The translations under genes were made by a program, and so were the position numbers. DNA of 23,750 nucleotides from Candidatus Diapherotrites archaeon CG08_land_8_20_14_0_20_30_16 (GTDB lineage Archaea; Iainarchaeota; Iainarchaeia; Iainarchaeales; 0-14-0-20-30-16). Positions 585 to 23,165 of the stretch are shown piece by piece (the stretch's first letter is position 1; each line of letters starts with the position of its first letter). Location of the stretch: NCBI GenBank assembly GCA_002779075.1, contig PEXK01000039.1, positions 1 through 23,750 of the forward strand, read 5' to 3'. The notes below the pieces were generated by a model. That model saw only the letters and a program-made list of their open reading frames with translations, was not told the DNA's origin and made no database searches.

Positions 585-1523
585 ATGCATTTTCACACTA
601 TTCATTACCCGAAGGATGAAATTAAACATAGAGATACTGCTGAATGGTGGTACTTTAATGGATTTTTGCAAAGCAAAATTGGACAGTTTGCATACATGCA
701 CACTTTATTTAGAATTGACTTAAGAAATGCAGAATATTTGAAATTGCTGCCACTACACAAAAAAATATTTAATGATTTTTATTTTGCACATTCAATGTTA
801 TTAAATTTGAAAACAAACGAACTGAAAACAGAAATTAAATATCACGTAACACCTACAAAAGAATCATTCAAACAAGATTTATTATTTTTTGAATATGACA
901 ATTGCGAATTATTAGAAAAACCAATTTTTAATTACTTTTTAAAAAATAGTTTTGTTGAACTAAATCTGCACAATAAAAAAAAACCATTACTAGAAAATAA
1001 AAAAGGAATAATAAAAAACAATAAGTACTATACTTATTATTACAGTTTAACCAATCTTCATACTGTGGGAGCAATTAAATGGAAAAACAAATTAATTAAA
1101 GTTAAAGGAAAAAGCTGGCACGATCATCAATGGATGAACAATATGCAACCAGATGTAAAATGGGATTGGTTTTCAGTGCAATTAAATAATAATGAAGAAA
1201 TGGTAGTAAATAGAATGAAATCATCAAATGAAAATAATTGGATTATCTATGCAACCATGATTGACAAAAAACAAAAACAAAAAACAACTCACAACATTAT
1301 TTTCAAACCTCAAAAAACAATCAAATTAAAAAGAATGGAATACCCTATTTATTGGATTATTGAATTGCCAGATTGGAAGATTAAACTAGATATCAAAGCA
1401 ATGCACAAGTCACAACAAATGGATTACAAACTTTTAAAATATTGGGAAGGTCCAACAAAAATAATTTGCACACAAAATAAAAAGAAAATAAAAGGATTAG
1501 GGTTTTTGGAAATGGTTCATTAG
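585..1523 (+). CDS. AttH / CrtC (carotenoid 1,2-hydratase)-like lipocalin-domain protein
   Basis: 312-aa ORF with an ATG start. The N-terminal HYPKDEIKHRDTAEWWYFNGFL matches the family signature (FP.DH..H....EWWY..G.L). The downstream GKSWHDHQW matches the G.AW.DHEW block. Confidence 0.6.
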   Translation: MHFHTIHYPKDEIKHRDTAEWWYFNGFLQSKIGQFAYMHTLFRIDLRNAEYLKLLPLHKKIFNDFYFAHSMLLNLKTNELKTEIKYHVTPTKESFKQDLLFFEYDNCELLEKPIFNYFLKNSFVELNLHNKKKPLLENKKGIIKNNKYYTYYYSLTNLHTVGAIKWKNKLIKVKGKSWHDHQWMNNMQPDVKWDWFSVQLNNNEEMVVNRMKSSNENNWIIYATMIDKKQKQKTTHNIIFKPQKTIKLKRMEYPIYWIIELPDWKIKLDIKAMHKSQQMDYKLLKYWEGPTKIICTQNKKKIKGLGFLEMVH

Positions 1524-1619
1524 AGAATAATTATGATTCATGATATTGCCTGAATAAATAAATACTTTAGATATCTACTACTATCTCTATTTGCATTTGG
1601 ATTAGTGTACAATATAATT

Positions 1620-2144
1620 ATGAAAGATATATTTTCTATAATTGCTACTTTGTTATCTCCGTTGGCAATATATGTTCCACATGTTCTAAGACTCTTTAAA
1701 GTAAAAGTGCCAGAAGATTATATTTTTCCATATTATATTCTTTTGTTTTTAGGGGTGTTTTTGGGAGAATCGATAGGAATATATTTAATGACATACTGGT
1801 GGGACAAAATAGTTCATGCATTTAGCGGAGTCTTATTGTTTATTTGGGGGCTGGCAATAGTTTACAAACAAGAATCAATAAAAAGCATTAAAAAGAATTT
1901 AACAAGGGCTTTTGTATTTGCATTCTTTTTCGCAATATTTATTGAATGTTGCTGGGAACTTTTTGAAATTGGTAATGATACTATAATAGGAACAAACATG
2001 TTGCAAGACGGAACAAGAGACACAACTTTAGATATGACCTTTGAAGCTTTTGGTGCAATAATAGGATCTATACTTGCATATATTACTTTAAATGTTAAAA
2101 AAATCTGGATTCTAGATATTTATTTAAAAGATTTAAGACCGTAA
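1620..2144 (+). CDS. Multi-pass integral membrane protein (possibly YjdF/DUF2238-like)
   Basis: The ORF is tracked from a GTG at 1605. The ATG at 1620 (MKDIFSIIATLL...) is the more likely start. There are four or five hydrophobic helices, and the WDKIVHAFSG and RDTTLDMTFEAFGA motifs are loosely reminiscent of DUF2238. The family assignment is weak. Confidence 0.5.
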   Translation: MKDIFSIIATLLSPLAIYVPHVLRLFKVKVPEDYIFPYYILLFLGVFLGESIGIYLMTYWWDKIVHAFSGVLLFIWGLAIVYKQESIKSIKKNLTRAFVFAFFFAIFIECCWELFEIGNDTIIGTNMLQDGTRDTTLDMTFEAFGAIIGSILAYITLNVKKIWILDIYLKDLRP

Positions 2145-2923: not shown

Positions 2924-3025
2924 AAATAGAAAAAGCTACAAAGAAATAAAAAGAGAAGGGGTTTATTTTGAAAAGTCCTTTTTTAAAAACCAAAAGCAAT
3001 ATACTTGTTGTGGCGTAAATATAAT

Positions 3026-3583
3026 ATGAACAATTTTTTCAAAAAAGTAAACAAAATAGTCAATAAAGTATTACCGTATACTTTAATTCTATTATTAATA
3101 ATTATTATTGCAGAAATGTTCTTTGACATTCAAAATGAAAATATTATTTTGGCGATAAAAATATCAGATGGATTTATAATTGCAGTATTTGTTTTAGACT
3201 TGGCATTTTTATATTATAAATCGAAAGATTTAATTTTCTTCTTCAAAAATTATTGGCTTGACATTCTTGCCGTGCTGCCTCTTGGATTGATGTTTAGAGT
3301 AGGAGAAAATATTTTTAAGATTGGGGCTGAAGCAGAAAAGATTTTTATTGGACAAAGAGTATTACATGAAGTGGCACAAGCAGAAAAACTAATTAAATTT
3401 ACATCAAAACTGGAAGAAGGCGCAAAAATATTTAGATTCCTAGAAGAATTCGCAAAAGTGTTTAGATTTATTCCAAAAACAATAGATTACATAAAAGGAA
3501 CAGATTTATTTACAAAGTTATATTATTCCTATCGTGATGAAAAAACAAATTATGATGGAATCAGAAAATATGGCAAGATATAA
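3026..3583 (+). CDS. Ion-transport-family-like membrane protein: S1-S3-type helices, no pore region
   Basis: The ORF is tracked from a TTG at 3005, with the first ATG at 3026 (MNNFFKK...). It has three hydrophobic helices. The third carries the NYWLDILAVLPLGLMFRV motif typical of S3 and the S3-S4 linker of voltage-gated channels. It is followed by charged amphipathic repeats (AKIFRFLEEFAKVFRFIPK). There are no S5-P-S6 helices and no selectivity filter. Confidence 0.5.
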   Translation: MNNFFKKVNKIVNKVLPYTLILLLIIIIAEMFFDIQNENIILAIKISDGFIIAVFVLDLAFLYYKSKDLIFFFKNYWLDILAVLPLGLMFRVGENIFKIGAEAEKIFIGQRVLHEVAQAEKLIKFTSKLEEGAKIFRFLEEFAKVFRFIPKTIDYIKGTDLFTKLYYSYRDEKTNYDGIRKYGKI

Positions 3584-3616: not shown

Positions 3617-4066
3617 TTATCCTAATTTATTTTCTAATATTGGTTGTCTTGTAAATGTAAATGTTCCTTGCACAAGTAACGATTTGACATCTTGAAGACA
3701 ATTAGAATTGTATGAAATGTCACTAGACCATGTACCAGACATTGTATCTTCTGTTTGTGATCTGATTGTTAAACTAAATTTATCAGAACAATTTGGAAAT
3801 TTTTTTCCACCATAGTAGCTATCTATAAAATAACCTGGTTGAAGATCTTCTTCTAAATTCTCATCAACAATAATATCCATAAATATACTATCATTATTGT
3901 TACCAACCAAATCACTAGTATCTATTAATTCTACCTTTACAGGAATATCTTTTACTGTGCCACCAAATATTGTCATACCGTCAGGCAAATTACTTGTCCT
4001 TGTTTGTGAGATTACTTTTTGTTCACCACTTATTACTTTTTGAAAAGAAAAAAAGCGGTTATTCAT
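3617..4066 (-). CDS. Hypothetical protein, 149 aa, beta-rich, no recognisable family
   Basis: Clean ORF whose ATG start (4066-4064) overlaps the stop of the upstream FtsX-like fragment by 8 nt, a translational-coupling geometry. I see no signal peptide or TM helix. Confidence 0.45.
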   Translation of the reverse strand: MNNRFFSFQKVISGEQKVISQTRTSNLPDGMTIFGGTVKDIPVKVELIDTSDLVGNNNDSIFMDIIVDENLEEDLQPGYFIDSYYGGKKFPNCSDKFSLTIRSQTEDTMSGTWSSDISYNSNCLQDVKSLLVQGTFTFTRQPILENKLG

Positions 4067-4675: not shown

Positions 4676-5911
4676 TTATTCTAATAACCATTTCCAAACT
4701 GGTTTAATAATTATATTCTTTTTATCAATTGTTATTGTTTTTTCAGTATCATAAGTTAAGATTAAACCTTCTTTTAAATTAAATTCATTCATGGCACTCA
4801 TTATACCATTAATTTCTCTTTTTTCATTATTTTCATTTAATTCCCATGAAACTTGAACTAATTCTTTTGGTTTACCATTTTCTGCAATTAAAAAATCACA
4901 CTCTTTATCAGAATAATCTTTCCAATAATATAATTCCTTGCGCTTTCTAAACAATTCTATTGCAACAATATTTTCTAAAACCTTGGATTTATCATATTCT
5001 GTTTTTGCAATCCGATTAATAAAACCAACATCAATAGCATAAACTTTTTTTGTAGATTGTTCTTGAGACTTATGAGAATATGAAAATTTTGGTAATACAA
5101 ATAATAAATATGCGTCCTCTAAATATGAAATATAATTCTTAATTGTTTCTGGAGCAATAGAAAATTGTTCTGCTTCTTTAGTATATGAAAAATATTTTCC
5201 ATATTTATATAACAAATCTATTGCTAAAGATTCAATAACAGATTTTTCTTTAATGGTATATCTATAAATAATATCTTTGTAAATTACATCTTTTATTAAA
5301 ATATTTAAGTCTAAACCTCTATTCAATACAACATCAGGATATCCTCCATAAATCATATAGTCATCAAAATGTTTTTTGATTTTAGAAATATCTTTCAAAT
5401 TATATTTATCTATTTTATTTTTATCTTTAATTGTTATAATATCTTTGAAAGTAAATGGCAAAATTAAAAAATCAGTATGTCTCCCAGTTAAAAAGGTTCC
5501 TAACTCTTTACTTAATAATTTAGAATTAGAACCAGTAATAAAAACATTATATGTTTTTGCCAAAGTATTGACAAATTTTTCCCAACCATTAACATTTTGA
5601 ATTTCATCAAAGAAAATTGTTTTAAACTCTTTTATTATTTGATTCCCGGCAATAATCAAATTATTAAAATCGTCTATTTTAAATTTACTTAATCGTACAT
5701 CATCAAAATTAACATACAAAACTCTATTATTATAAATTTCTTTGCCCAAGGATAATAAAAAATAGCTTTTTCCAGCACGTCTGGGCCCAGTAATAATTTT
5801 GATCAATTTTGCTTTATAATCAATAATATTTAATTCTGAACGTTTAAAGATAATGTTATTTAAATCTGCCTTTTGCTCATTTATAATGATTTTTAATTCT
5901 TCTATATTCAT
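4676..5911 (-). CDS. AAA-type ATPase with C-terminal DUF4143 nuclease-fold domain (COG1373 family)
   Basis: Walker A is ITGPRRAGKSYF and Walker B is TIFFDEIQNV. The C-terminal ...YYWKDYSDKECDFLIAENGKPKELVQVSWEL is typical of the PD-(D/E)xK-like DUF4143 end. The tracked start is a TTG at 5932; the ATG at 5911 (MNIEELKIII...) is preferred. Confidence 0.8.
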   Translation of the reverse strand: MNIEELKIIINEQKADLNNIIFKRSELNIIDYKAKLIKIITGPRRAGKSYFLLSLGKEIYNNRVLYVNFDDVRLSKFKIDDFNNLIIAGNQIIKEFKTIFFDEIQNVNGWEKFVNTLAKTYNVFITGSNSKLLSKELGTFLTGRHTDFLILPFTFKDIITIKDKNKIDKYNLKDISKIKKHFDDYMIYGGYPDVVLNRGLDLNILIKDVIYKDIIYRYTIKEKSVIESLAIDLLYKYGKYFSYTKEAEQFSIAPETIKNYISYLEDAYLLFVLPKFSYSHKSQEQSTKKVYAIDVGFINRIAKTEYDKSKVLENIVAIELFRKRKELYYWKDYSDKECDFLIAENGKPKELVQVSWELNENNEKREINGIMSAMNEFNLKEGLILTYDTEKTITIDKKNIIIKPVWKWLLE

Positions 5912-5945
5912 AACAAAATAACAACCGAACAACTTAAAAAGTATG

Positions 5946-6146: not shown

Positions 6147-6218
6147 TGCCCCTGTCGGGAGTTGAACCCGAGTCACGAGATTGAGAATCTCATATGATAA
6201 CCGCTACACCACAGGGGC
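6147..6218 (-). tRNA. tRNA-Glu (anticodon CUC), no intron, CCA not encoded
   Basis: Reverse complement: GCCCCTG TG GTGTAGCGGTTATCAT A TGAGA TTCTCAA TCTCG TGAC TCGGG TTCAACT CCCGA CAGGGGC A. It has a 7-bp acceptor stem, a 5-bp anticodon stem (one G-U), anticodon loop TTCTCAA giving CTC, and a 5-bp T stem with a TTCAACT loop. The D arm is of the GGTGTAG...ATCAT type seen in archaeal tRNA-Glu. Confidence 0.9.
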
Positions 6219-6410: not shown

Positions 6411-6677
6411 TTATAATGAATTGTACCATTCTTCATATTCTTTGTGATTTTTAAAACACTTTACAACTGTAATAATATTATTTTCGACTTGAAACGAAAA
6501 CCTTGTAGAATTTGTAACTTTTTCAACAAAATAAGGCAAACTGTATTTTAAATGTTCCCTTGGTACAAAAGACTGCTTCAATTTAATAAAATGTTTTACA
6601 AATAAAGAATTCAATTGTTCAGACATCTTTCTAAGATCTTTTCTTGCTCTTTCAGCAACTATTAACTCATAGGTCAA
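6411..6677 (-). CDS. RelE/ParE-superfamily type II toxin
   Basis: 88 aa. The N-terminal YELIVAERARKDLRKM and the C-terminal TRFSFQVENNIITVVKCFKNHKEYE follow the RelE/ParE pattern (y.i.....A.kdl.kl ... yRl.y.v.....i.v..i..H..Y). The TTG start lies 2 nt after the antitoxin stop. Confidence 0.6.
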   Translation of the reverse strand: MTYELIVAERARKDLRKMSEQLNSLFVKHFIKLKQSFVPREHLKYSLPYFVEKVTNSTRFSFQVENNIITVVKCFKNHKEYEEWYNSL

Positions 6678-6679
6678 TA

Positions 6680-6940
6680 TTACACCTTAAATTCTTTCCT
6701 AATCTCAGCCAAAGTATATAATTTTTCACCGCTGGCTTTAATTTGTTTCATTTCCTGTTCTGTCTTTTTTCTAACTTTTTTTACTTCATCTAAAGTAACA
6801 GTATCCCAAAAATTGTACTCCCTACCAAAAAGCAACAAAGCAAATCTTATGGCTTCTGCTTTTGTTTTAACAACACCATTCTTAATAGCATTATCAACAA
6901 CACTTTCAGTATAACCCTCTAAACTAACATTTACAATCAT
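6680..6940 (-). CDS. Ribbon-helix-helix (CopG-like) antitoxin
   Basis: It lies immediately upstream of the toxin and is about the same size. The segment VNVSLEGYTESVVDNAIKNGVVKTKAEAIRFALLLF fits a beta-strand plus helix-helix RHH layout. The tracked TTG is at 6946; the ATG at 6940 is preferred. Confidence 0.55.
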   Translation of the reverse strand: MIVNVSLEGYTESVVDNAIKNGVVKTKAEAIRFALLLFGREYNFWDTVTLDEVKKVRKKTEQEMKQIKASGEKLYTLAEIRKEFKV

Positions 6941-7417
6941 AATCAATCACACATAAATATACCACGATATATTTATAAATATTGTGTGTAATCTGTGCAT
7001 TTTCTCTAGCATGCATTGCTACTTTAAAGCACAAATCTAAAAGTAGGCAATAGAATTTAAAGAGTTTGAAAGATATTTGGAATAAACTAAAATGCCTAAA
7101 CTAAGTCTTAGAATTATTCCGCATTAGATCAAAATAATCTTTATATGTTGTTTTACCGGGAATCCCGGTAGTCTACAGTATACGAAGAATTCCCGTAATT
7201 TTGCGAAGAGAACTGGTTTATAAAAGAATTAATAGAATTATGCTATGATTCCAGCACGAAATTTGTAAATGGAACATCAATAATGCTATACAAACCAAGT
7301 TTTAGGTATCTCGATGAAAAGAAGAAAAAAATTTACAAAAAAGAGGAGCAAAAGTTTTTGAGTAGAAACTAATTTTTGATTTTACCATTTTAATTTTACC
7401 ATAGCAATAAAACTTCA

Positions 7418-10502: not shown

Positions 10503-13500
10503 TTAATCCATGTAATATGATGCATCTTTAGGTTGTGGTTCCATACCTTTTCTTGTTCTTATTTCTGTTATTAACTTCTTTTGCATATCATGAGGCAACA
10601 TTTCATAGCCTTCATATTCTGCTGTCCATATAACCTTTCCTTGGGTTACTGATCTTGATGCCTGGCTAAACCCAATAAGCTCTTTAACTGGTGCAACACC
10701 AATAATTATTGTTTCTTCACCTTGGGTCTTTATACTTTCTAATCTTGCTCTTCTATTCTGCAATTCTTTTGTCATTGCACCTAAATATTCATTAGGGATT
10801 GATAAATATAATCTTTGTTTAGGCTCAAAAATAACAGGATTAGAAGATAACATTGCACAATATAATCCTCTATTTATTGCAGGAATAACTTGTGCAGGGC
10901 CTCTGTGAATTGCATCCTCGTGCAGAGTAGCATCATCAATATAAACAAAAATTCCTACTACTTTTTCGCCAGCTAAAGGCCCCTTATCTGTAGTTTCATT
11001 GAAGCCTTGAATTAATAATTCTTTTACTTCTAATAATTGAATAATTCCTCTTGTTCTGTTAATCAACATACAACCATTATTAATTGCCCAAACGCTTTTT
11101 GCAGTATCTCTTGGTAATCCAATTGCAATTAATTTTTGTATTTTTTCATCATCCTTATTTTCTCTTATTTTACCAGTTATTTTAGTATCTAATAATTTTT
11201 CATAAAATTCCTTATCCATTGGTTCAACAATCAATTTAAACTTATTATGCTTGTTTGGTGTTTTTGATTCAATAACTGATGAAGCCTTCTGTATTGTTTC
11301 TTCATAAACAACAATTGGTGGACTCACATTAATTGGAACACCATTATCGTGTTCAATTCTGTACTGAACAATTTCTAAATGCAATTCGCCCATTCCACTT
11401 ACTAATATTTCACCAGTAGTTTGTTCTAAGACAGTTCTTACATTTGGATCTTCTTTTACAATTTGTTTTAATACATCTATCAATTTAGGTAGGTCTTTTG
11501 GATTTTTTGATTCAATAGACATTGTTATTACTGGTTCTGCTTTAGACATAAAATTCTCAAATTCTTTTATTGGTTCTTCGGCAATAGTTTCACCTGCACA
11601 AGTATCTTTTGCACCAATTATTGCTGCAATATTTCCTGCAGACACCTCATCAACCAATACTCTTTCGGGGCCCATATAAAGTGCAACTTGCTGTACTTTT
11701 ATTGTTTTTTGTGATCCTACCAAATAAACATCCTTGCCTCGTGTAATAGTTCCAGAATAAATTCTTCCTGTTGCAACATCGCCCGCATGAACATCATGAA
11801 TTAAGTCAGTAACCATCATTGCAAAGGGTCCTTTTGGATCACACTTCAACATGGATTTTCCATATTTACTTTCTAAATCTCCGCCCCAAATATGTGCAAT
11901 TCTATATTTTTGTGCATCTAACGGGGATGGCAGGTGTTTAATTACAACATCTAACAGCACTTTACTAATATGAGTTTTTTTTGCTAATGTTTTTTGGTCG
12001 CCAGCTTTACAATAATCATAAACATCTTTGAATGTAATTCCTAATTCTTTAATTGAATTATAACTCAATGCCCAATTATTAAATCCAGAACCAAATGCAA
12101 CACTTCCTTCTTGCACAGAAACATTCCACCCCCCCTTAAACTCTTCGGGACAAAATTTACTTATTACTTTGTTTACCTCGTTGATTACTTCAACAAATCT
12201 TTTTTGCATTTCTTCAGGAGTAACTTTTAATTCGTTTACTAATCTATCAACTTTATTCAAAAATAAAACAGGTTTAACATATTCTTTCAATGCTTGTCTA
12301 ATAACAGTTTCTGTTTGAGGCATTACGCCTTCAACAACATCAACAACAACAACAACACCATCAACAGCTCTCATTGCTCTTATTACATCTCCTCCAAAAT
12401 CAACATGGCCTGGAGTATCAATTAAATTAATTAAATATTTCTGGCCATCAAGATCATTATAAACCAAGGAAATATTTGACGCATTAATTGTTATTCCTCT
12501 TTCTTGTTCCAATTCATATGAATCCATGAAACATTGTTTACCTGCTAATTCTTCAGATATTACGCCTGATGATGCAATTAGGTTGTCACTCAAAGTGGTG
12601 TTGTGAACAATAAAACCGTCTGCAATGAAATTATGAAATTTATCTACACTAAAATCATAAACAAACTTTTTTTTATTTCTCGTTTTTATTTCTTTGATTT
12701 TTATAAAGGAAGTATCATATCTAGTTAATATATTTAACTCTTTAACTATTTTATCTTCTTTTGGATATCTGTTCAAAATTTTTTGCAAAGATTGTTTTGA
12801 TAACCCTACATTATTGTTTTCATAATTGCAGTAGCCATTAAAAAATGCCATTTGTTGGAGATTATATTTCTCTCTTAATTTTTTAAGAATATTTCCTGAA
12901 ATTGCAACATATTCATTTTTTGCGACTTTTGCTCTATTTAACAAATTTTTGTAAGCTTCTCTTTTATAAGAAATTGAAAATCCAATTTTCTTAAAATTTT
13001 CTAGAGATTTTCTTCCAGAAATATATAATGTTCCCTTTTTATGATTGAATGAACTATCTATATCAAATTTGTAAAGCAGAAGTTGAAGCTCTAAAAGGAA
13101 GTTTTTGCTTCTGCTTGTTACAGAAATTGCACTCCTAGCTTTTTCAATTCCACCATCAACATCTAAGTAACCCCTAATAAATGCGGAAATACATTTCTTA
13201 TCTGATTTTTCTAAAAAAATTGATACTTTCAAATTATATGTTTTTTTATTTTTAGGATACAAAAATAGATTCTCTAAGATTTTCTTTAAAGTTATCCCAC
13301 CGACCTCAATTCTTGTAGCTCTGTTTTTGAAATTTCTTACTTTACAACTAGTATTAAACTCTTTTGCAATACCTTTCACTTCTTCCTGTATTTCTTTGTT
13401 ATTATTTGTTATACTACAACCCAAATCTCCGTCGCCAAAAAATAATCCTGACAAATAATATAGTCTCTCAAAATTTTTTGGCAAATTAATTTTCAAAGAG

Positions 13501-14297
13501 GAATGTACACCTTTACTTTTTATTCCTCTATAGTTTATCCAATTTATTTGATTCCAAATTTCTGTTATTTTAATATTAAATAAGTTACAAACAGATATAA
13601 AATCCATCAGCCTATATTCGCCCCGCCAAACACAATGATAAAAAGACTTTGGTTTCAACAGAGAAATTATTTCAGAGTATACCTCAAAACTTCCTACTTC
13701 CGAGATCTTTTTGTGTAATATCTTTTTTAATTTTGGTTTCAGGATTATGTAAAATCCTTTGTCTCTTGCCAATTCAAATAAAAATTCCTTTTTTTGTTCT
13801 TCTTTATTCATCCCCTTGTGAATTAATTTTCTGCTTGAAACAAGGATTTCAGATTTTTTTAACCTTCCTGCTTCTTTTTCAATTATTTTTCCTTCTTTAT
13901 CTAATATTAAAAATTTGTGTTCTTTTGTTGTTTTTATTTTTCTTCCATTTTCCAAAGTTACTTCTACTAACGGTTCTGTATTTCTCAGTTTCCACAAATG
14001 AGTTATTTTTCCTTCTTTTATTTTCCCTGTCTTTTTATCGAAAGAATTAACTAAAATTGGTCTTTTTAATTTCACTACTATTTCTTCTGTATTTTTATTT
14101 ACAATTTTTCCTTTATCCTTGAATCTATTAAATAACCTTTCTGCTCCTAAATTTTCCCCAGTTGTAAGAGAGAGTCGTGTTTCTGAAGAAACACATTTCC
14201 CATGATCAATATGCGCAACTATGCCTAAGTTTCTAATATTTTTTTGATTGCACATCAATTCTACTGCTTGTTTTGCCACTTCTTCTCTTTTTGCCAT
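10503..14297 (-). CDS. fusA: Translation elongation factor 2 (aEF-2) precursor, interrupted by an intein
   Basis: The exteins read ...NIRNLGIVAHIDHGK | TTLSDNLIASSGVISEELAGK...LIDTPGHVDFGGDV...NKVDR...HEDAIHRGPAQ (diphthamide-site HRG)...YYMD*. The tracked TTG at 14330 adds 11 unlikely residues; the ATG at 14297 (MAKREEV...) is preferred. Extein total is 732 aa, and the intein is 532 aa. Confidence 0.92.
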   Translation of the reverse strand: MAKREEVAKQAVELMCNQKNIRNLGIVAHIDHGKCVSSETRLSLTTGENLGAERLFNRFKDKGKIVNKNTEEIVVKLKRPILVNSFDKKTGKIKEGKITHLWKLRNTEPLVEVTLENGRKIKTTKEHKFLILDKEGKIIEKEAGRLKKSEILVSSRKLIHKGMNKEEQKKEFLFELARDKGFYIILKPKLKKILHKKISEVGSFEVYSEIISLLKPKSFYHCVWRGEYRLMDFISVCNLFNIKITEIWNQINWINYRGIKSKGVHSSLKINLPKNFERLYYLSGLFFGDGDLGCSITNNNKEIQEEVKGIAKEFNTSCKVRNFKNRATRIEVGGITLKKILENLFLYPKNKKTYNLKVSIFLEKSDKKCISAFIRGYLDVDGGIEKARSAISVTSRSKNFLLELQLLLYKFDIDSSFNHKKGTLYISGRKSLENFKKIGFSISYKREAYKNLLNRAKVAKNEYVAISGNILKKLREKYNLQQMAFFNGYCNYENNNVGLSKQSLQKILNRYPKEDKIVKELNILTRYDTSFIKIKEIKTRNKKKFVYDFSVDKFHNFIADGFIVHNTTLSDNLIASSGVISEELAGKQCFMDSYELEQERGITINASNISLVYNDLDGQKYLINLIDTPGHVDFGGDVIRAMRAVDGVVVVVDVVEGVMPQTETVIRQALKEYVKPVLFLNKVDRLVNELKVTPEEMQKRFVEVINEVNKVISKFCPEEFKGGWNVSVQEGSVAFGSGFNNWALSYNSIKELGITFKDVYDYCKAGDQKTLAKKTHISKVLLDVVIKHLPSPLDAQKYRIAHIWGGDLESKYGKSMLKCDPKGPFAMMVTDLIHDVHAGDVATGRIYSGTITRGKDVYLVGSQKTIKVQQVALYMGPERVLVDEVSAGNIAAIIGAKDTCAGETIAEEPIKEFENFMSKAEPVITMSIESKNPKDLPKLIDVLKQIVKEDPNVRTVLEQTTGEILVSGMGELHLEIVQYRIEHDNGVPINVSPPIVVYEETIQKASSVIESKTPNKHNKFKLIVEPMDKEFYEKLLDTKITGKIRENKDDEKIQKLIAIGLPRDTAKSVWAINNGCMLINRTRGIIQLLEVKELLIQGFNETTDKGPLAGEKVVGIFVYIDDATLHEDAIHRGPAQVIPAINRGLYCAMLSSNPVIFEPKQRLYLSIPNEYLGAMTKELQNRRARLESIKTQGEETIIIGVAPVKELIGFSQASRSVTQGKVIWTAEYEGYEMLPHDMQKKLITEIRTRKGMEPQPKDASYYMD
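12600..14195 (-). mobile_element. Intein (Hint domain + LAGLIDADG homing endonuclease) inserted in the EF-2 P-loop
   Basis: Cys1 codon at 14195-14193 (CVSSETRLSL, block A). Block B TxxH is present in GRKIKTTKEHKF. The two LAGLIDADG motifs are LYYLSGLFFGDGDL (about 13418-13465) and FIRGYLDVDGGI (about 13146-13190), each retaining the acidic residue. Blocks F/G read KFVYDFSVDKFHNFIADGFIVHN, with the terminal Asn codon at 12602-12600 and a +1 Thr. It is 1596 nt, in frame. Confidence 0.88.
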
Positions 14298-14443
14298 AAA
14301 TAACCCTTCTATTTTATGGAACTGTTGCAATTTCTGATTTCTTTGAGGAAATTTACAACTGCGCCATAAATCATCAACTTTACTATTTAATTCCTTAAAA
14401 ACATAAAAATAAATTATAAAAAGAAATATGGAAAAATCTTTTA

Positions 14444-15043
14444 CTATCTACTAGATCTTGCAATTCTTTCTATTTCATCTTTTCTTTTTATTGAATAACT
14501 TTTTTGATCTCTAGATGCTGCTAACATTATTCCTGATGCCAAAGCATCTGCAAAAGTTATTTTTGTATTAAAAGTATTTGCAAATACTGCTAAAACAATA
14601 TTTTTTAATGCCTCATCTAATTTTTTAATTGGCGCAACATCAACAGATTCTGCAGATGCAACTCCCCCTTTTGTAATTCTAGTAACATCTTCATTTGGTG
14701 TTGAGTTTTCAATAGCATCTATCAAAACTTGAACAGGATTTTTCCCTGTTTTTTTATTTATAATATCAAATGCACTATCTACTGCTTTCAATGCTAATAA
14801 TTTTTTTCCGCAGTTCAATCTGCCTCTATAAAATTTTCCACCAAGCTTCTTTTTTCCTTGTCCGGATCTCATCAGTTTATTTATCAAACGTTCAATAATA
14901 TTTATTCTTTCTTTGCTTTTTCCTGACGAAATACTTGTTCCAAAAGTGTGCATAGAAAGTCTATTCTCTAAAACAACATACGGCACTAATCCGGCGTCTC
15001 TAATTTTAATTTCTGTTGCATCCCACTTTCCAAATACTTTCAT
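14444..15043 (-). CDS. rps7: 30S ribosomal protein S7 (uS7)
   Basis: 199 aa with an ATG start. It shows an archaeal uS7 pattern (KVFGKWD...LVPYV...INKLMRSG...GKK...A..IV..AF.II) and sits in the conserved position between S12 and EF-2. Confidence 0.9.
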   Translation of the reverse strand: MKVFGKWDATEIKIRDAGLVPYVVLENRLSMHTFGTSISSGKSKERINIIERLINKLMRSGQGKKKLGGKFYRGRLNCGKKLLALKAVDSAFDIINKKTGKNPVQVLIDAIENSTPNEDVTRITKGGVASAESVDVAPIKKLDEALKNIVLAVFANTFNTKITFADALASGIMLAASRDQKSYSIKRKDEIERIARSSR

Positions 15044-15103
15044 ATTTATCCCTTTTTATCAATATCAATTTTCAATACACAAACTTGTACTGTTTAGTGT
15101 GCA

Positions 15104-15532
15104 TTATCTTTTGGCTTTTTCTTTTTTGCCTCTTCTTAATTGTTCTAAAGAAATACCATTTACTTTTTCCACTTTATATGATACACCCCAAAGGTCCCCT
15201 TTTGGTCCGCCTTTTGAGCCATTTATACCAGACACTGTTACTTCATCGTGTTGATCAATATATTTTATTGCACCATCTTTTGGTGCCAAGGCAGTTACTT
15301 TTATGCCATTACTTAACTGCACTCTCACACATTTTCTTAATCCTGAATTTGGCTGTTTTGCTTCAACTGTTCTTTTAAGAAGAACAATACCACTTTTCAT
15401 AGGTGCACCTTGCAGAGGATCTTTCAAAGTGCCAGTATCTCTTTTCCATTTTTTCATATATTTAGCAGACTTTTTTCTCCACATTTTCTTGCTTTTAAGC
15501 ATTTTTCGTGCTGCAAATTCACCATTACTCAT
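15104..15532 (-). CDS. rps12: 30S ribosomal protein S12 (uS12)
   Basis: 142 aa with an ATG start. The sequence [49 protein letters not shown] is the conserved uS12 core. Confidence 0.92.
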
Positions 15533-15545
15533 TCATACCACTCAA

Positions 15546-15562
15546 AAATATATATAAATAAA
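15546..15562 (-). promoter_or_regulatory. TATA-box-like element upstream of S12
   Basis: Minus-sense GTTTATTTATATATATTTT lies about 15-30 nt upstream of the S12 ATG. This is consistent with a separate str-operon promoter giving a leaderless or short-leader transcript. It is sequence resemblance only. Confidence 0.3.
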
Positions 15563-15697
15563 CACTCTAAACATATTAATCCATATCAATCTCAATCTTA
15601 TATGCTACTAAGATGTGGGATATATTACTAGGTTATGGGATTACTTTTTTAGGAAAAAGTATATATTATAGAGTATTTCCCTTTAAAAACATAACTC

Positions 15698-15994
15698 TTA
15701 TTTAAATTCAAGAAGAATCTTAGATTTTCCTTCGCTTATTATTGATGCTACGCTCACAGGATGTGCCAAACCAATAACTTTTCCAAATTCCAAGGGGGTA
15801 TGATTTACCAAAACAAATTGAAGTTTGGCAATCTTGCATAAATGTTTTAATCTTAATCTATCAGCTTCATGAATTGAAGAAGACAATACCAGACCTTTGG
15901 ATTCGCCAAAAAGAACACTTCTTTCACTGTCTTTTGTGCCTACCAAAACTTTTCCTGTTTTATAACATCTTTTTATTTCAACATCAATAGTCAT
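15698..15994 (-). CDS. rpl30e: 50S ribosomal protein L30e (eL30)
   Basis: From the ATG at 15994 (MTIDVEIKRCYKTGKVLVGTKDSERSVLFGESKGLVLSS...FGKVIGLAHPVSVASI) the protein is 98 aa with an L30e/L7Ae-fold pattern. The tracked GTG at 16012 adds 6 residues. It occupies the conserved position after rpoA''. Confidence 0.8.
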   Translation of the reverse strand: MTIDVEIKRCYKTGKVLVGTKDSERSVLFGESKGLVLSSSIHEADRLRLKHLCKIAKLQFVLVNHTPLEFGKVIGLAHPVSVASIISEGKSKILLEFK

Positions 15995-16037
15995 AAATAC
16001 CCCTCTTAACACAATAATTTTATTTGTTAATGTTTAT

Positions 16038-17174
16038 TTATTTTTTCTCTTTATTATCTTCCTTAGGTATTTTATCAAAATCAATTTCTAAATCCACTTT
16101 TCCAACACCTATATTAATTGGCAATCCAGCCATTACATTTTCAACAACGCCTTCAAATTCTTCTTCTTCGCCATACAAAGCAGAATTAAATAAAACTTTT
16201 TCTGTTTGTTCAAATGCTGCACGGGCAAACGGGCTCTTTTTTGTACTTACAATACCTGTACGAACAACCCCTAATACTTCGCCATCATAGCACATAGCAT
16301 CAACAAGCAATAATAAATGTCTTAAATCAACGCCAATTACTGACTTTTTATAAACCTCTGCAATTTCTCTTACTAACAATTCTCTTGCAGCTTCAATACC
16401 AAACACTTTGTATATTTCAGAAATATCATTTGTGTAAGTTCTATAAACATCAACAAATTCCAGATTACTGATATCTTTCAAATTAGAGCCTTGTGTTTTT
16501 ATTACTGACTCGCCAAATTCATCAGATACTATTGCATCGCTTATTCCTAAAATACCAACAATTCCCAAATCCAGCAACTTTTGGAAATATTTTCTTACAG
16601 TAAGCAATGTTTGATCTTTGAACAAAACTTCAAATCCATCTTTTGTTTCCTGAAGCACACTAAGTTTTAAAACTCCTTTTAATATTTTGTACAAGTCCTC
16701 TTTTTTCATATCATATTCGTGCAAAACTTTTGGATCATAAGAAACAAGAATCTTGTGTTCTTTCAAATCCTCTTTTATTTCAATCAAATCAGATAATTTT
16801 TTATATATTATTTGTTTTAAATAATTTTTCATTGAATTTTTATCTGTTTTAAGTCCTTCACGAATAAAAACAGTCATAACAGGATACTTTGTTTTGTTTC
16901 TAGCATCAACTAATTCTTCTAAACGCTTAACACCAGAACCTACAGAAACTTCAATTGCACCAGCATAGTGCTTTGTTCTCAATGTCATCTGAGTTGCAGG
17001 TTCACACATACTATGAGGTGTCAAAATACCAACAGGTTCATAAATAGGCACCAATCGATCTTCATAATATTCTTTACAATCTTGCAAAAATTTATCCTTT
17101 TTTTTGCCTGTTAAACCTTGTTTATCTGCAAAACCCACAATCCTTTTTATCATATATTCTGGCAGTTCTAACAT
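16038..17174 (-). CDS. rpoA2: DNA-directed RNA polymerase subunit A''
   Basis: 378 aa with an ATG start. The sequence VGILTPHSMCEPATQMTLRTKHYAGA...HLLLLVDAMCYDGEVLGVVRTGI...SPFARAAFEQT is the C-terminal third of the largest subunit (trigger loop region). Confidence 0.93.
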   Translation of the reverse strand: MLELPEYMIKRIVGFADKQGLTGKKKDKFLQDCKEYYEDRLVPIYEPVGILTPHSMCEPATQMTLRTKHYAGAIEVSVGSGVKRLEELVDARNKTKYPVMTVFIREGLKTDKNSMKNYLKQIIYKKLSDLIEIKEDLKEHKILVSYDPKVLHEYDMKKEDLYKILKGVLKLSVLQETKDGFEVLFKDQTLLTVRKYFQKLLDLGIVGILGISDAIVSDEFGESVIKTQGSNLKDISNLEFVDVYRTYTNDISEIYKVFGIEAARELLVREIAEVYKKSVIGVDLRHLLLLVDAMCYDGEVLGVVRTGIVSTKKSPFARAAFEQTEKVLFNSALYGEEEEFEGVVENVMAGLPINIGVGKVDLEIDFDKIPKEDNKEKK

Positions 17175-17249
17175 AAAACATCACATCACAGTTTCATGAG
17201 CTGTTGTATAATTTCTATCTTTGTAGAATAAATTTTACAACTGGACATA

Positions 17250-19881: not shown

Positions 19882-21693
19882 TCACGCTAGGTCCTTTATT
19901 TTTATTTTGGGATAAATTGCAATTGATTTTAATTCATCTAAAAACAACTTGAATGAATACGGCATAGACACTTCCAAAACATTAAAACCATTGCAACAAG
20001 GGCAATACAATTTTCCTTGCAACTTGTCATCAACAGCAACAATTCCACAATCATTACAAACTGGCAAGCAAACTTTATCTGAATCTTCAACAAGTTTTTC
20101 ATTCAAAAGCATTGCTGCACCATAACCTACCAAACAATCACTTTCCATTTCACCAAACTTTAGTCCGCCTTCTTTTTCTTTACCTTCAGTTGGTTGTCTT
20201 GTTAATAATTGAACAGGTCCTCTTGAACGTGCCTGTAATTTATTTTTTACTAAATGATACAATCTTCTATAAGCAATAACACCAACATAAATTTCCCCTT
20301 TTATAAGCATTCCTGTTGTTCCATCATAAAAAGTTTCATAGCCATCAGGTCTAAATCCTTGTTCAATCAAACTTTTTTTAATACTATCCAAAGGCTCACT
20401 TGAAAATGGTGTACCATCAACCTCTTTACCTCTCAAACAAGCAACTTTTCCACTCATAATCTCTAATAAATCACCAATTGTCATTCTTGAAGAAATAGAT
20501 GTTGGGTTCAAAAGCAAATCAGGGATTATTCCTCTTGTGCTTACTGGCATGTCTGTTTCTTCAGCCAAAAGTCCAACAACACCTTTTTGCCCATGTTTAG
20601 ATGAAAATTTGTCGCCATTCTCTGGCTGCCTTTCTGTTCTTACCTTCACCTTTAACAACTTTTCGCTGCCACTACTTGAAATATACACTCTATCAATATA
20701 TCCTTCTGTATTTCTCTTAATAAAAAATGATTTGTCTTCATATTTTTCTTCAACTAAACCCAAAGTAGGCAAACTATCCATAAATCTAGGAGGCGCAATT
20801 TTTGATATCAAAACAGTATCTCTATCAACATAGCTTTCTGCTTCTGGCAAAGAATCTTCACCAATAACTTTATATGCTTCCAAGCCTAAAAATCCTTTGA
20901 CTGTTTCATTGGGTATTGAAAAAATTTCTTTCTGACCATCTGGATAAGTCACTTCTCTTTCAGTATATGTTCTGTAATAACTTGCTCTTCCTAAACCCCT
21001 TTGAACACAACCTTTATTCAAAACAATAGCATCTTGAGTATTGAAACCAAAATAAGGAATTATTGCAACAACAAAATTTTGAATTATTGGCCTTTCATCA
21101 ACATTAATAATATCAGAAATTTTTGTTTTTACTAATTGCTTTTGCGGATAATACAAATTATAATATTCTGTATCTGTTCTCAAATAATGATTTGGCCCAA
21201 TAAAACCTATGCCTTGTTTGTACATCTTTGCACCATGCAAAGCTTTTGTTGCCATATCGTGTTCAACAAAAGGCGTCAAAGAAGTTACCAAGCTGTATAT
21301 TGCCCCGGGTTCCAATTCCAAATGTGTATGTTCTTTAGTTACATGTTCCAAATCAATTGCGATATAAAGATTGTCTTCTTCATCAGCATCAATATATTCA
21401 ACTAAACCCTTTTTTAACAAATCATCAAACTTCAATTTATAATTTTGAATTTGATTAATATGTTCTTGATTTAAAAGTACTTTTCCATCTTTCATAGTTA
21501 AGACTGGTCTTTGCAATCTGCCAGCGCCAGTATTAATGTAAACTTCATTTGTATCTTCTTTGAAACCAATGTTTATTAAAGTGTCCAATTGTCCATGTCT
21601 TCTTAGATCTTTTATTCCATTGATTAATTCCAAAGGGCTATCATGAAATCCAACTAATCTTCCATCTAAATATACTTTTGTCTTCTTAACCAT
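19882..21693 (-). CDS. rpoB1: DNA-directed RNA polymerase subunit B' (C-terminal half of split B)
   Basis: 603 aa with an ATG start. Motifs: GDKFSSKHGQKGVVG, PDLLLNPTSISSRMTIG, GGLKFGEMESDCL, and the C-terminal Zn ribbon CNDCG...CPCC. Confidence 0.95.
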   Translation of the reverse strand: MVKKTKVYLDGRLVGFHDSPLELINGIKDLRRHGQLDTLINIGFKEDTNEVYINTGAGRLQRPVLTMKDGKVLLNQEHINQIQNYKLKFDDLLKKGLVEYIDADEEDNLYIAIDLEHVTKEHTHLELEPGAIYSLVTSLTPFVEHDMATKALHGAKMYKQGIGFIGPNHYLRTDTEYYNLYYPQKQLVKTKISDIINVDERPIIQNFVVAIIPYFGFNTQDAIVLNKGCVQRGLGRASYYRTYTEREVTYPDGQKEIFSIPNETVKGFLGLEAYKVIGEDSLPEAESYVDRDTVLISKIAPPRFMDSLPTLGLVEEKYEDKSFFIKRNTEGYIDRVYISSSGSEKLLKVKVRTERQPENGDKFSSKHGQKGVVGLLAEETDMPVSTRGIIPDLLLNPTSISSRMTIGDLLEIMSGKVACLRGKEVDGTPFSSEPLDSIKKSLIEQGFRPDGYETFYDGTTGMLIKGEIYVGVIAYRRLYHLVKNKLQARSRGPVQLLTRQPTEGKEKEGGLKFGEMESDCLVGYGAAMLLNEKLVEDSDKVCLPVCNDCGIVAVDDKLQGKLYCPCCNGFNVLEVSMPYSFKLFLDELKSIAIYPKIKIKDLA

Positions 21694-21701
21694 ACAATCA
21701 C

Positions 21702-23165
21702 TTATTTTTCGGAGACGTTTAATTTTCTTAAAAGAGAGTCTAAATCACTACCTTCATAATCTGTTGTAACTCTAGACATTACAGCTAAATTTTTAATCAA
21801 TCCACAATTTGGACCATCTGGTGTTTCAATAGGGCACACTCTTCCCCAAGCAGTACCATGAACACTTCTTGCTTCATAATTCTCTCTACTGCTATCTAAA
21901 GTAGATTTTACTTTTCTAGCTTCAATTATTGGATTCAACCAATTGTAACGCGTAAAAAAAGAACTTACGCCAGTTAGTTTTCCAGCCCAGATACCTGTAG
22001 CCATGCCAAACATAATTCTATCTGTAACAACATCTGGTCTGATAATTGTGTTTATTTTTAATCTTCTTCTTCTTACTATATTTCTATCAATCTGAAATTT
22101 AATATCATTTATAAAATAATTAATTGCCTGCATAAATTGTCTTTCCAAAAGTTTACCGCTAAGCTCTATTCTTTTATTATTGTAACTATCCTTATCATCT
22201 TCATCTCTCAAATTGTAAGCTAATTCTATTGCTCTCTGTGCCATTCCAATCAAATAATATGCTTTCAAAATTCTTTTATCTTCTGTCTGGCCAATATGTG
22301 GCAACAAAAAATTATCTAGTATTTCATATGTCCTCTTTAATCTATATGCTAAAATCTGACCAGGAGCAACATATTTTCCAATTTGATCCAAGGCCTCTTC
22401 TTCACTTTCAATATTTAATCTGCTAAAATTCAATAGAACATCGTTTTGAATCTCAGAAATATTTTCAAATGTATTTGTAAAATCTTCTTTTGTTTTAAAG
22501 CACAAAGCTCTTAATAAAACAAAGAATTTCAATTTTTTAGGACTCGAAGGAAAACTTATTTCCAATATTCCATTTGGATTTCTTACAAGCCTTACTTTAC
22601 CTTTAAATGCTCCTCTTGTAGATAAAACCTCAGAGACACATTTGGAGCCATCTCTTGAAACCATTATTTTATCTGAAGCTAAGACCTCTTGATTAACTAA
22701 AACTTTTTCTACTCCGTTTATTACAAAATAGCTTCCCAAATCTTTTGGATCTTCTCCTGCGATTATTAATTCATCATCATTTAAACCACACAAATTACAC
22801 AATTTAGATTTAACCATAACAGGCAATTCTCCAATTGCTGTTCTTTTAGTATCCTGAAGAACGCCTTTTCTATAAAGTTCTATATCTGCAAAAATAGGCG
22901 CACTATATGTTTTATCTCTCAAACGAGCCTCCATAGGAAAAAAATCAGTTCTACGAGAACCATCTTCTTCAACCAACTGTGGTCTTAAAATTTGGACATT
23001 GTTTAATCTAACTTCAACATCCTCAACTCTAGACAATATAGATGAATTCTCTTGAATAATTTGAGGCACTTTGACAAAAATAAATTGATTATAGGATTCA
23101 ATATTCTGTTGAATAATAGTATTATCTTTATAATACGATTTTATTAATTCCCAACCAAAACACAC
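21702..23165 (-). CDS. rpoB2: DNA-directed RNA polymerase subunit B'' (N-terminal half of split B)
   Basis: 487 aa. The GTG start is preceded by a GGTGAT Shine-Dalgarno-like string and lies 13 nt after the rpoH stop. Motifs: QQNIESYNQFI, IGELPVMVKS, GSYFVINGVEKVLV, PIETPDGPNCGLIKNLA. Confidence 0.93.
   Translation of the reverse strand: MCFGWELIKSYYKDNTIIQQNIESYNQFIFVKVPQIIQENSSILSRVEDVEVRLNNVQILRPQLVEEDGSRRTDFFPMEARLRDKTYSAPIFADIELYRKGVLQDTKRTAIGELPVMVKSKLCNLCGLNDDELIIAGEDPKDLGSYFVINGVEKVLVNQEVLASDKIMVSRDGSKCVSEVLSTRGAFKGKVRLVRNPNGILEISFPSSPKKLKFFVLLRALCFKTKEDFTNTFENISEIQNDVLLNFSRLNIESEEEALDQIGKYVAPGQILAYRLKRTYEILDNFLLPHIGQTEDKRILKAYYLIGMAQRAIELAYNLRDEDDKDSYNNKRIELSGKLLERQFMQAINYFINDIKFQIDRNIVRRRRLKINTIIRPDVVTDRIMFGMATGIWAGKLTGVSSFFTRYNWLNPIIEARKVKSTLDSSRENYEARSVHGTAWGRVCPIETPDGPNCGLIKNLAVMSRVTTDYEGSDLDSLLRKLNVSEK

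Follow-up and report, generated by a model that had tools for sequence, protein, structure and literature searches.

We analyzed a 23,750-nucleotide stretch of DNA, positions 1 to 23,750 of contig PEXK01000039.1 from Candidatus Diapherotrites archaeon CG08_land_8_20_14_0_20_30_16 (hereafter the window), in which the gene for archaeal elongation factor 2 (aEF-2) is interrupted in frame by 532 codons. We put at about 90% the probability that this insert is a class-1 intein with a two-motif LAGLIDADG endonuclease, lying in the Walker-A/G1 loop of aEF-2 in a DPANN-type archaeon of low guanine-plus-cytosine (GC) content and spread by homing. The intein allele at this Lys-Thr (K/T; the slash marks the splice junction throughout) site of EF-2 is not new, as it is already in dozens of public archaeal genomes, and the window copy is a well-preserved example of an existing kind of intein. 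An initial annotation of the window, made by a model from the DNA letters alone, had interpreted the insert in the same way, and our analysis supports that interpretation.

The interrupted EF-2 gene and its insert

The EF-2 gene seen in this 23.7-kb window is the copy within the canonical S12-S7-EF2-EF1α-S10 operon. Its open reading frame (ORF) occupies 10503..14330 when counted from a TTG start, and the coding sequence (CDS) of the precursor, delimited by TIGR00490 and by identical public gene calls, occupies 10503..14297, with the ATG at 14295..14297 followed by the rest of 1264 codons and a stop; these and all other coordinates within the gene are on the minus strand. The whole protein scored 979.3 bits against the aEF-2 equivalog model TIGR00490 (cut-off 738.45), and all five EF-2 domains (GTP_EFTU, D2, EFG_III, EFG_IV and EFG_C) were detected in the profile search. 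When the insert was excised in silico, a 732-residue protein was obtained that carries AHIDHGKTT, DTPGH, NKVD and the diphthamide-loop HEDAIHRG. The protein therefore belongs to archaeal EF-2 by its profile score, its five domains, its G1-G4 motifs and the His of its diphthamide loop.

The precursor consists of three parts. The N-extein (14196..14297) has 34 residues, aligns with the N-termini of intein-free EF-2s and ends in …GIVAHIDHGK, the first half of the G1 or P-loop motif. The intein (12600..14195), as delimited by profiles, an AlphaFold2 (AF2) model and Foldseek, is a class-1 element of 532 residues and ~62 kDa running from Cys1 to Asn532; it corresponds to residues 35-566 of the precursor counted from the ATG, or 46-577 counted from the TTG. 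The C-extein (10503..12599), 698 residues and a stop, starts with TTLSDN…, of which the first Thr is the +1 residue, and contains the remaining G domain and domains II-V. The junctions are thus AHIDHGK/CVSSETR … DGFIVHN/TTLSDN, between Lys34 and Thr35 of the G1 motif. The initial annotation had already given a 1264-residue ORF from the ATG, a contiguous block of 532 residues between the G1 Lys and Thr, and a canonical G1 motif in a 732-residue protein after deletion of that block. Our coordinates agree exactly for the ORF and to the base for the block, the deletion was reproduced, and the computed masses (intein 62.0 kDa, spliced EF-2 81.7 kDa) fit the products of about 62 and 82 kDa that it expected. 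Because the insertion in the P-loop blocks GTP binding before splicing, all activity of the intein-bearing EF-2 should depend on protein splicing.

Profile searches identified both functional modules of the insert with scores above the curated cut-offs, as the initial annotation had proposed checking. Pfam Intein_splicing (PF14890) matched with an E-value of 1.1e-30 and 106.9 bits (cut-off 35.8), and Pfam LAGLIDADG_3 (PF14528) with 2.3e-14 and 53.8 bits (cut-off 22.5); E-values from 1e-30 to 1e-14 are not expected by chance. The NCBIfam model of the N-terminal splicing region (TIGR01445) exceeded its cut-off over intein residues 1-97, and that of the C-terminal splicing region (TIGR01443) covered residues 511-532 with 27.5 bits against a cut-off of 15.6. 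When the intein was searched against the sequences of the PDB, PI-PfuI, the Pab PolII intein and VMA inteins were matched.

The residues expected to carry out splicing were all located, as the initial annotation had listed them (Cys1, TTKEH, the penultimate His, the terminal Asn and the +1 Thr), and they are strongly conserved among 43 intein homologues that are 26-66% identical to the window intein. The N-terminal half of the Hint domain (residues ~1-122, 13830..14195), recognized from TIGR01445, from the beta strands of the model and from alignments with PI-PfuI and Pab PolII, includes block A with Cys1 (14193..14195; 43/43 homologues) and block B with the TxxH sequence TTKEH (13917..13931), of which Thr90 is kept in 42/43 homologues and His93 in 43/43. 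The C-terminal half (12600..12716), defined by TIGR01443 and by conservation, contains blocks F and G, that is, VYDFS with Asp514 and …FIVHN with His531 and Asn532. Asp514 and Asn532 are, like Cys1 and His93, invariant across the homologues, while 40/43 keep His531 and 42/42 have Thr at +1. With Cys1, the TxxH of block B, a C-terminal His-Asn followed by Thr, a Hint fold and a host motif that can be restored, the insert has the features of a class-1 intein.

Between the two halves of the Hint domain lies the LAGLIDADG homing-endonuclease domain (residues ~240-405, 12981..13478), detected by PF14528, in the model and by Foldseek. Its two motifs, LSGLFFGDG (13428..13454) and IRGYLDVDG (13152..13178), retain the acidic residues that the initial annotation had pointed out, namely the catalytic Asp255, found in 38/41 homologues having the domain, and the catalytic Asp347, found in 37/40. 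The AF2 model of the intein, computed from an alignment of the 43 homologues, had a mean predicted local distance difference test (pLDDT) score of 95.3 and a predicted template-modelling (pTM) score of 0.94. In its residues 242-392 the secondary-structure elements follow the order α-β-β-α-β-β-α, a pattern present twice, as in the pseudo-dimeric LAGLIDADG fold. Foldseek matched the model to the TliVMA intein (7qss, 2e-21), PI-TkoII (2cw7, 6e-21), PI-PfuI (1dq3, 3e-20) and also PI-SceI in the PDB; the nuclease part matched I-DmoI, E-DreI and the nuclease domains of PI-PfuI and PI-TkoII, and the Hint part matched many mini-inteins and solved inteins with an rmsd of 1.6-2.6 Å over ~124 columns. 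Sequence and predicted fold together identify the insert as a class-1 intein with a single-chain, two-motif LAGLIDADG endonuclease, both functions being predicted ones.

From the conserved residues and the established chemistry of inteins, the following course can be proposed. A 143-kDa precursor would be translated with an interrupted GTP-binding loop, and the Hint domain would then fold. Cys1 would undergo an N-S acyl shift, aided by Thr90 and His93 of block B, and the hydroxyl of the +1 Thr would then take over the acyl group of the thioester; cyclisation of Asn532, aided by His531 and Asp514, would release the 62-kDa intein, and an O-N shift would leave a native Lys-Thr bond, so that the AHIDHGKTT loop of the resulting 82-kDa EF-2 is whole. 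The released intein, whose Asp255 and Asp347 lie at the base of the paired LAGLIDADG helices, would cleave unoccupied EF-2 alleles across the stretch that codes for HIDHGK/TTLSD, and repair templated by the occupied allele would copy the intein in, which would also have been its route of entry into the lineage of the window. Judged from these residues, splicing competence is very likely, and nuclease activity at the present day is plausible, with the balance tilting slightly in its favour.

Empty sites, acquisition and the state of the endonuclease

A natural empty site exists in a close relative. The closest EF-2 orthologue (P0207, at locus L021) has 733 residues, exteins 85% identical to those of the window and an uninterrupted insertion site, and its gene aligned with the spliced CDS of the window at 82% nucleotide identity over 2190 nt, gapless at the junction. 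The homing site reconstructed from the window by joining its 5' half (14196..14225) to its 3' half (12570..12599) reads GGCATAGTTGCGCATATTGATCATGGGAAA/ACCACTTTGAGTGACAACCTAATTGCATCA; the natural empty site is GGAATAGTTGCACATATTGATCATGGTAAAACAACTTTATCTGATAATCTAATTGCTGCA, and 49/60 nt around the insertion point match between the two. No intein-like sequence was found elsewhere in the P0207/L021 locus, and no further intein-like or free-standing LAGLIDADG sequence was found by tblastn within the window. The alignment with intein-free EF-2s that the initial annotation had suggested runs straight across the junction with zero extra residues. In a search with the spliced extein, the ~36 closest orthologues, from 85% down to 61% identity, were all 729-735 residues long and free of inteins, and intein carriers made up about one tenth of the best 120 EF-2s.

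Inteins at exactly the same HGK/C site were found in ~40 EF-2 protein clusters by a search with the precursor, and in ~9 further clusters by a search with the extein. In all, more than 50 clusters carry an intein there. The hosts are mostly DPANN archaea; those with a name are metagenome-assembled genomes (MAGs) of Candidatus Diapherotrites, Micrarchaeota, Nanohaloarchaea, Nanoarchaeota, Woesearchaeota and Aenigmatarchaeota, one single-cell genome, and the complete genome of one cultured methanogen, Methanothermus fervidus DSM 2088 (ADP77444.1 / UniProt E3GYR2, 1142 residues). A scan of a genome collection with the intein alone returned only distant inteins, from Nanoarchaeota and Woesearchaeota MAGs. 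The family covers the homing cycle in all its stages: inteins of full length that keep both catalytic Asp; the 412-residue intein of M. fervidus, in which both Asp are replaced (by Gly and Arg) and for which no LAGLIDADG Pfam match is recorded; and mini-inteins of 162-168 residues (P0001 and P0030). In three further EF-2 inteins (P0023, P0024 and P0018) Glu or Gln takes the place of the penultimate His (…EN/T or …QN/T); such variants alter Asn cyclisation in other inteins.

In public annotation the carriers are called only 'elongation factor EF-2', with Pfam intein domains precomputed. Since proteins of 1100-1280 residues are thus labelled as plain EF-2, phylogenies using EF-2 as a marker must excise the intein first. 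As to whether the K/T allele had been catalogued, which the initial annotation left undecided, it is already in public databases, and among the papers searched none was found to name an EF-2 intein, though it may have been catalogued before.

The relatedness of the inteins does not follow that of their hosts. The closest intein (P0002, 57.5% identity) resides in an extein only 52.8% identical to that of the window, while the closest intein-bearing exteins (61-62% identity) hold inteins only 37-38% identical. Because every closest EF-2 orthologue is intein-free, the intein would have entered after the split from the 85%-identical relatives, and this mismatch, together with the empty nearest relatives, makes lateral acquisition by homing after that split the simplest reading. 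The same mismatch lends indirect support to a site-specific cut of the intein-less allele. A possible trace of the event was seen next to the insertion point when the window was compared with five other loci (L021, L025, L026, L024 and L027). The first six codons of the C-extein (12582..12599) are ACC ACT TTG AGT GAC AAC in the window and AC[AT] AC[TG] TT[AG] TC[TA] GAT AAT in the three nearest empty alleles. The Ser codon has switched family from TCN to AGT, and GAC and AAC are like those of other occupied alleles; this switch may hint, if faintly, at the remnant of a co-conversion tract left by homing.

In composition the intein differs from its exteins, with 15.2% Lys and 7.9% Asn against 8.6% and 4.5%, in line with the Lys/Asn richness noted in the initial annotation, and with a GC fraction of 0.268 against 0.328. 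We considered a foreign origin on this ground and rejected it, since low GC and Lys/Asn richness recur in three hosts of differing GC (intein/extein 0.268/0.328, 0.318/0.392 and 0.407/0.476), the intein always being 6-7 points lower. These are general properties of EF-2 inteins, whose GC tracks that of the host, and are therefore no sign of foreignness.

The same tracking of host GC bears on a different explanation, in which the intein still splices but its endonuclease is inactive, so that it persists as a fixed, vertically inherited passenger whose imprecise loss from an essential P-loop would be lethal. We regard this as possible, though on balance doubtful. GC amelioration implies long residence; degenerate relatives exist, both the M. 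fervidus copy and the mini-inteins; and no close relative was found to share the intein and so attest a very recent transfer, the best intein identity being 57%. Set against this are the integrity of the domain, with both Asp, the two-fold LAGLIDADG fold and the flanking helical regions of DNA-binding type all intact and modelled with pLDDT >90, and the retention of the Asp in ~92% of the homologues despite their great divergence, an argument for ongoing selection on nuclease function in the family. The late entry deduced above from the empty nearest relatives also speaks against mere vertical inheritance.

Several points nevertheless weigh against a homing element that splices well and is still active. 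Residence has been long enough for GC amelioration, which would fit a nuclease that has fallen silent in the meantime, and the two catalytic Asp are needed for endonuclease activity yet insufficient alone. As for the efficiency of splicing, position 91 in block B is Lys here versus Pro in 39/43 homologues, and Thr is the weakest of the three possible +1 nucleophiles. Finally, gain rather than loss of the intein was deduced by parsimony over database matches rather than from a dated tree.

Another possibility is that the intein serves as a conditional switch, by which splicing, and with it the amount of functional EF-2 and the overall rate of translation, would respond to redox, temperature or other stress; comparable functions have been suggested for the inteins of RadA, MCM and further P-loop proteins. 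GTP binding is disabled until splicing, the catalytic Cys1 is in principle redox-sensitive, and the clustering of inteins in P-loops has been taken by Novikova et al. 2016 (PMC4760082) to suggest functional retention. The distribution of the intein is sporadic, however, with all nearest relatives lacking it, no obvious partner Cys stands near -3 in the N-extein (GIVAHIDHGK), and the sequence offers nothing that separates regulation from plain parasitism. We consider a regulatory role improbable.

The gene is also found in independent assemblies. An identical 1264-residue product is present on four contigs, and the two shown are from two European Nucleotide Archive (ENA) assemblies; one of these ENA contigs is 99.98% identical to the window over 9.8 kb, and the other is 99.5-99.9% identical. 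The occurrence of the same protein on four contigs means that it is not an assembly artefact, and the assembly error at the junctions that the initial annotation had named as a danger to its interpretation is not borne out. The alternatives of a chimeric assembly, a pseudogene of EF-2 or a lineage-specific domain that does not splice have the metagenomic origin of the contig as their sole ground. On the sequence evidence they were rejected as extremely improbable, given the ORF open across 1264 codons, the match of Hint and LAGLIDADG profiles and fold, the clean junction in intein-free orthologues, the repeated contigs and the more than 50 homologous alleles at the same site in other genomes.

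A further observation concerns variation among the contigs. One that encodes the same EF-2 precursor (L001) differs from window 14293..17224, the 2.9 kb upstream, by 10 mismatches and 5 gap openings, and from the window elsewhere by 6 mismatches and 2 gap openings. These differences represent strain-level microdiversity around a conserved intein-bearing gene.

Gene neighbourhood

The window and the P0207 locus are arranged alike, in the order rpoB''-rpoB'-rpoA'-rpoA''-L30e-S12-S7-EF2-EF1α-S10. RNA polymerase subunit B is split into adjacent genes on the minus strand (19882..21693 and 21702..23165), with the 603-residue product comprising domains 4-7 of Rpb2 and the 487-residue product domains 1-3. 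The gene of the L30e/L7Ae family is separated from that of S12 by a short spacer only (window 15533..15697; L021 4731..4831), with no NusA gene between them; in many archaea nusA is located at this place in the operon.

Flanking the operon are genes for an AAA_14/DUF4143 ATPase (4676..5932, minus strand) and a CrtC/lipocalin-like protein (585..1523, plus strand), and three small ORFs nearby (1605..2144, 3005..3583 and 3617..4066) had no Pfam match. An Rfam scan of the window detected one tRNA and nothing else. Beside this tRNA-Glu(CTC) (6147..6218) two abutting ORFs of 88 residues each (6411..6677 and 6680..6946, minus strand) stand within an otherwise ORF-poor stretch of 1.5 kb, and in layout the pair resembles a small cassette of two genes, such as one of the toxin-antitoxin kind.

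Relation to other P-loop inteins

An exhaustive HMMER search with the intein over 1.84 billion representatives gave 1249 matches at E <= 0.001, and the identities of the host proteins were verified with Pfam. EF-2 inteins came first, followed by those of aIF5B, then those of SRP54 and FtsY, and then those of T2SSE-type ATPases, MCM and RNR. The aIF5B inteins sit at GHVDHGK/C…HN/T[TS]LLD, and the SRP54 and FtsY inteins at GxxGxGK/C…HN/TT. The top NCBIfam match of the window intein was the intein-containing IF-2 model PRK14845 (1.5e-37), whose type we take to be that of the IF2 inteins of Methanocaldococcus and Pyrococcus.

A neighbour-joining tree was built from 96 P-loop inteins, with distances only and with taxa picked by their similarity to the window intein. 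In it the EF-2 inteins were monophyletic (bootstrap 90/100), and together with the aIF5B inteins they formed a clade (98/100) apart from the SRP54/FtsY, MCM and T2SSE inteins. The comparison with aIF5B/IF2 P-loop inteins that the initial annotation had called for thus identified them as the nearest relatives outside EF-2, at the homologous HGK/T position. An ectopic link between the paralogous P-loops of EF-2 and aIF5B is thereby supported, and it appears ancient rather than recent, because the EF-2 inteins form a separate clade, which argues against a recent jump from aIF5B.

Among the inteins most closely related to that of EF-2 there are also full-length LAGLIDADG inteins at the equivalent Walker-A GK/T or GK/S site of SRP54, FtsY-like, T2SSE (VirB11/PilB-type) and MCM proteins (P0079, P0083, P0090, P0098, P0056, P0101 and P0172). 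Some of these inteins, such as those of P0056 and P0101, include an HTH_3 domain.

On a wider reading, an archaeal superfamily of 'GK/T' Walker-A inteins has moved ectopically among P-loop NTPases through near-identical GK-T/S DNA, and the window copy is a comparatively recent lateral arrival with an active endonuclease; we advance this tentatively, at somewhat less than even odds. Such movement may have connected EF-2 with aIF5B in both directions and, more distantly, SRP54, FtsY, MCM and T2SSE, that is, paralogous as well as non-homologous hosts. If this is true, the window and the L021 locus are a natural occupied/empty pair for the study of homing into a DPANN gene essential to translation.

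The setting of the intein in the core translation machinery is a rare one. According to Novikova et al. 2016 (PMC4760082), components of transcription and translation 'contain few inteins', and the top 15 archaeal intein hosts given there include aIF2 and omit EF-2. The window adds a well-preserved EF-2 intein that is probably mobile to this day and has a natural empty target in a sister lineage, and the survey documents the EF-2 K/T site as a widespread, unnamed intein allele in DPANN archaea and one cultured methanogen. It also offers evidence from archaea that inteins in the P-loops of various GTPases and ATPases are mutual closest relatives, which bears on how inteins colonise new genes. 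The understanding of inteins in general is unchanged by the EF-2 case, and its interest is modest.

Compared with known systems, the window intein is nearest to the public EF-2 P-loop inteins, with which it shares the host protein, the HGK/C…HN/T site, the splicing residues and membership of one clade. Its identity to them does not exceed 57.5%, however, and it retains both endonuclease Asp, unlike the M. fervidus copy, which has lost both, and the mini-inteins P0001 and P0030. Its closest host relatives are free of inteins, in contrast to the widespread carriers of the EF-2 allele elsewhere. The aIF5B/IF-2 inteins have the same architecture and occupy the homologous position in a paralogous translational GTPase; they are similar over their full length at 24-30% identity and differ in the host gene. 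The solved bifunctional archaeal inteins PI-PfuI (1dq3), PI-TkoII (2cw7) and TliVMA (7qss) share a Hint domain split by a two-motif LAGLIDADG endonuclease with accessory DNA-binding regions, and they match the model with Foldseek E-values of 2e-21 to 3e-20 and TM-scores of 0.55-0.78, but they are only 16-18% identical and reside in RNR, PolB and V-ATPase at other target sites.

P-loops are described as known cluster sites of inteins by Novikova et al. 2016 (PMC4760082), in agreement with the remark of the initial annotation that they are intein hot spots, and for the eukaryote Anaeramoeba Gallot-Lavallée et al. 2023 (PMC10710043) described the transfer of inteins between P-loops. As in that case, related inteins here occupy the Walker-A loops of different proteins, since the inteins nearest to that of EF-2 lie almost all at GK/T or GK/S of aIF5B, SRP54, FtsY, MCM and T2SSE ATPases. 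The Anaeramoeba inteins are eukaryotic mini-inteins within one genome, whereas those described here are archaeal, carry an endonuclease and are spread over many genomes.

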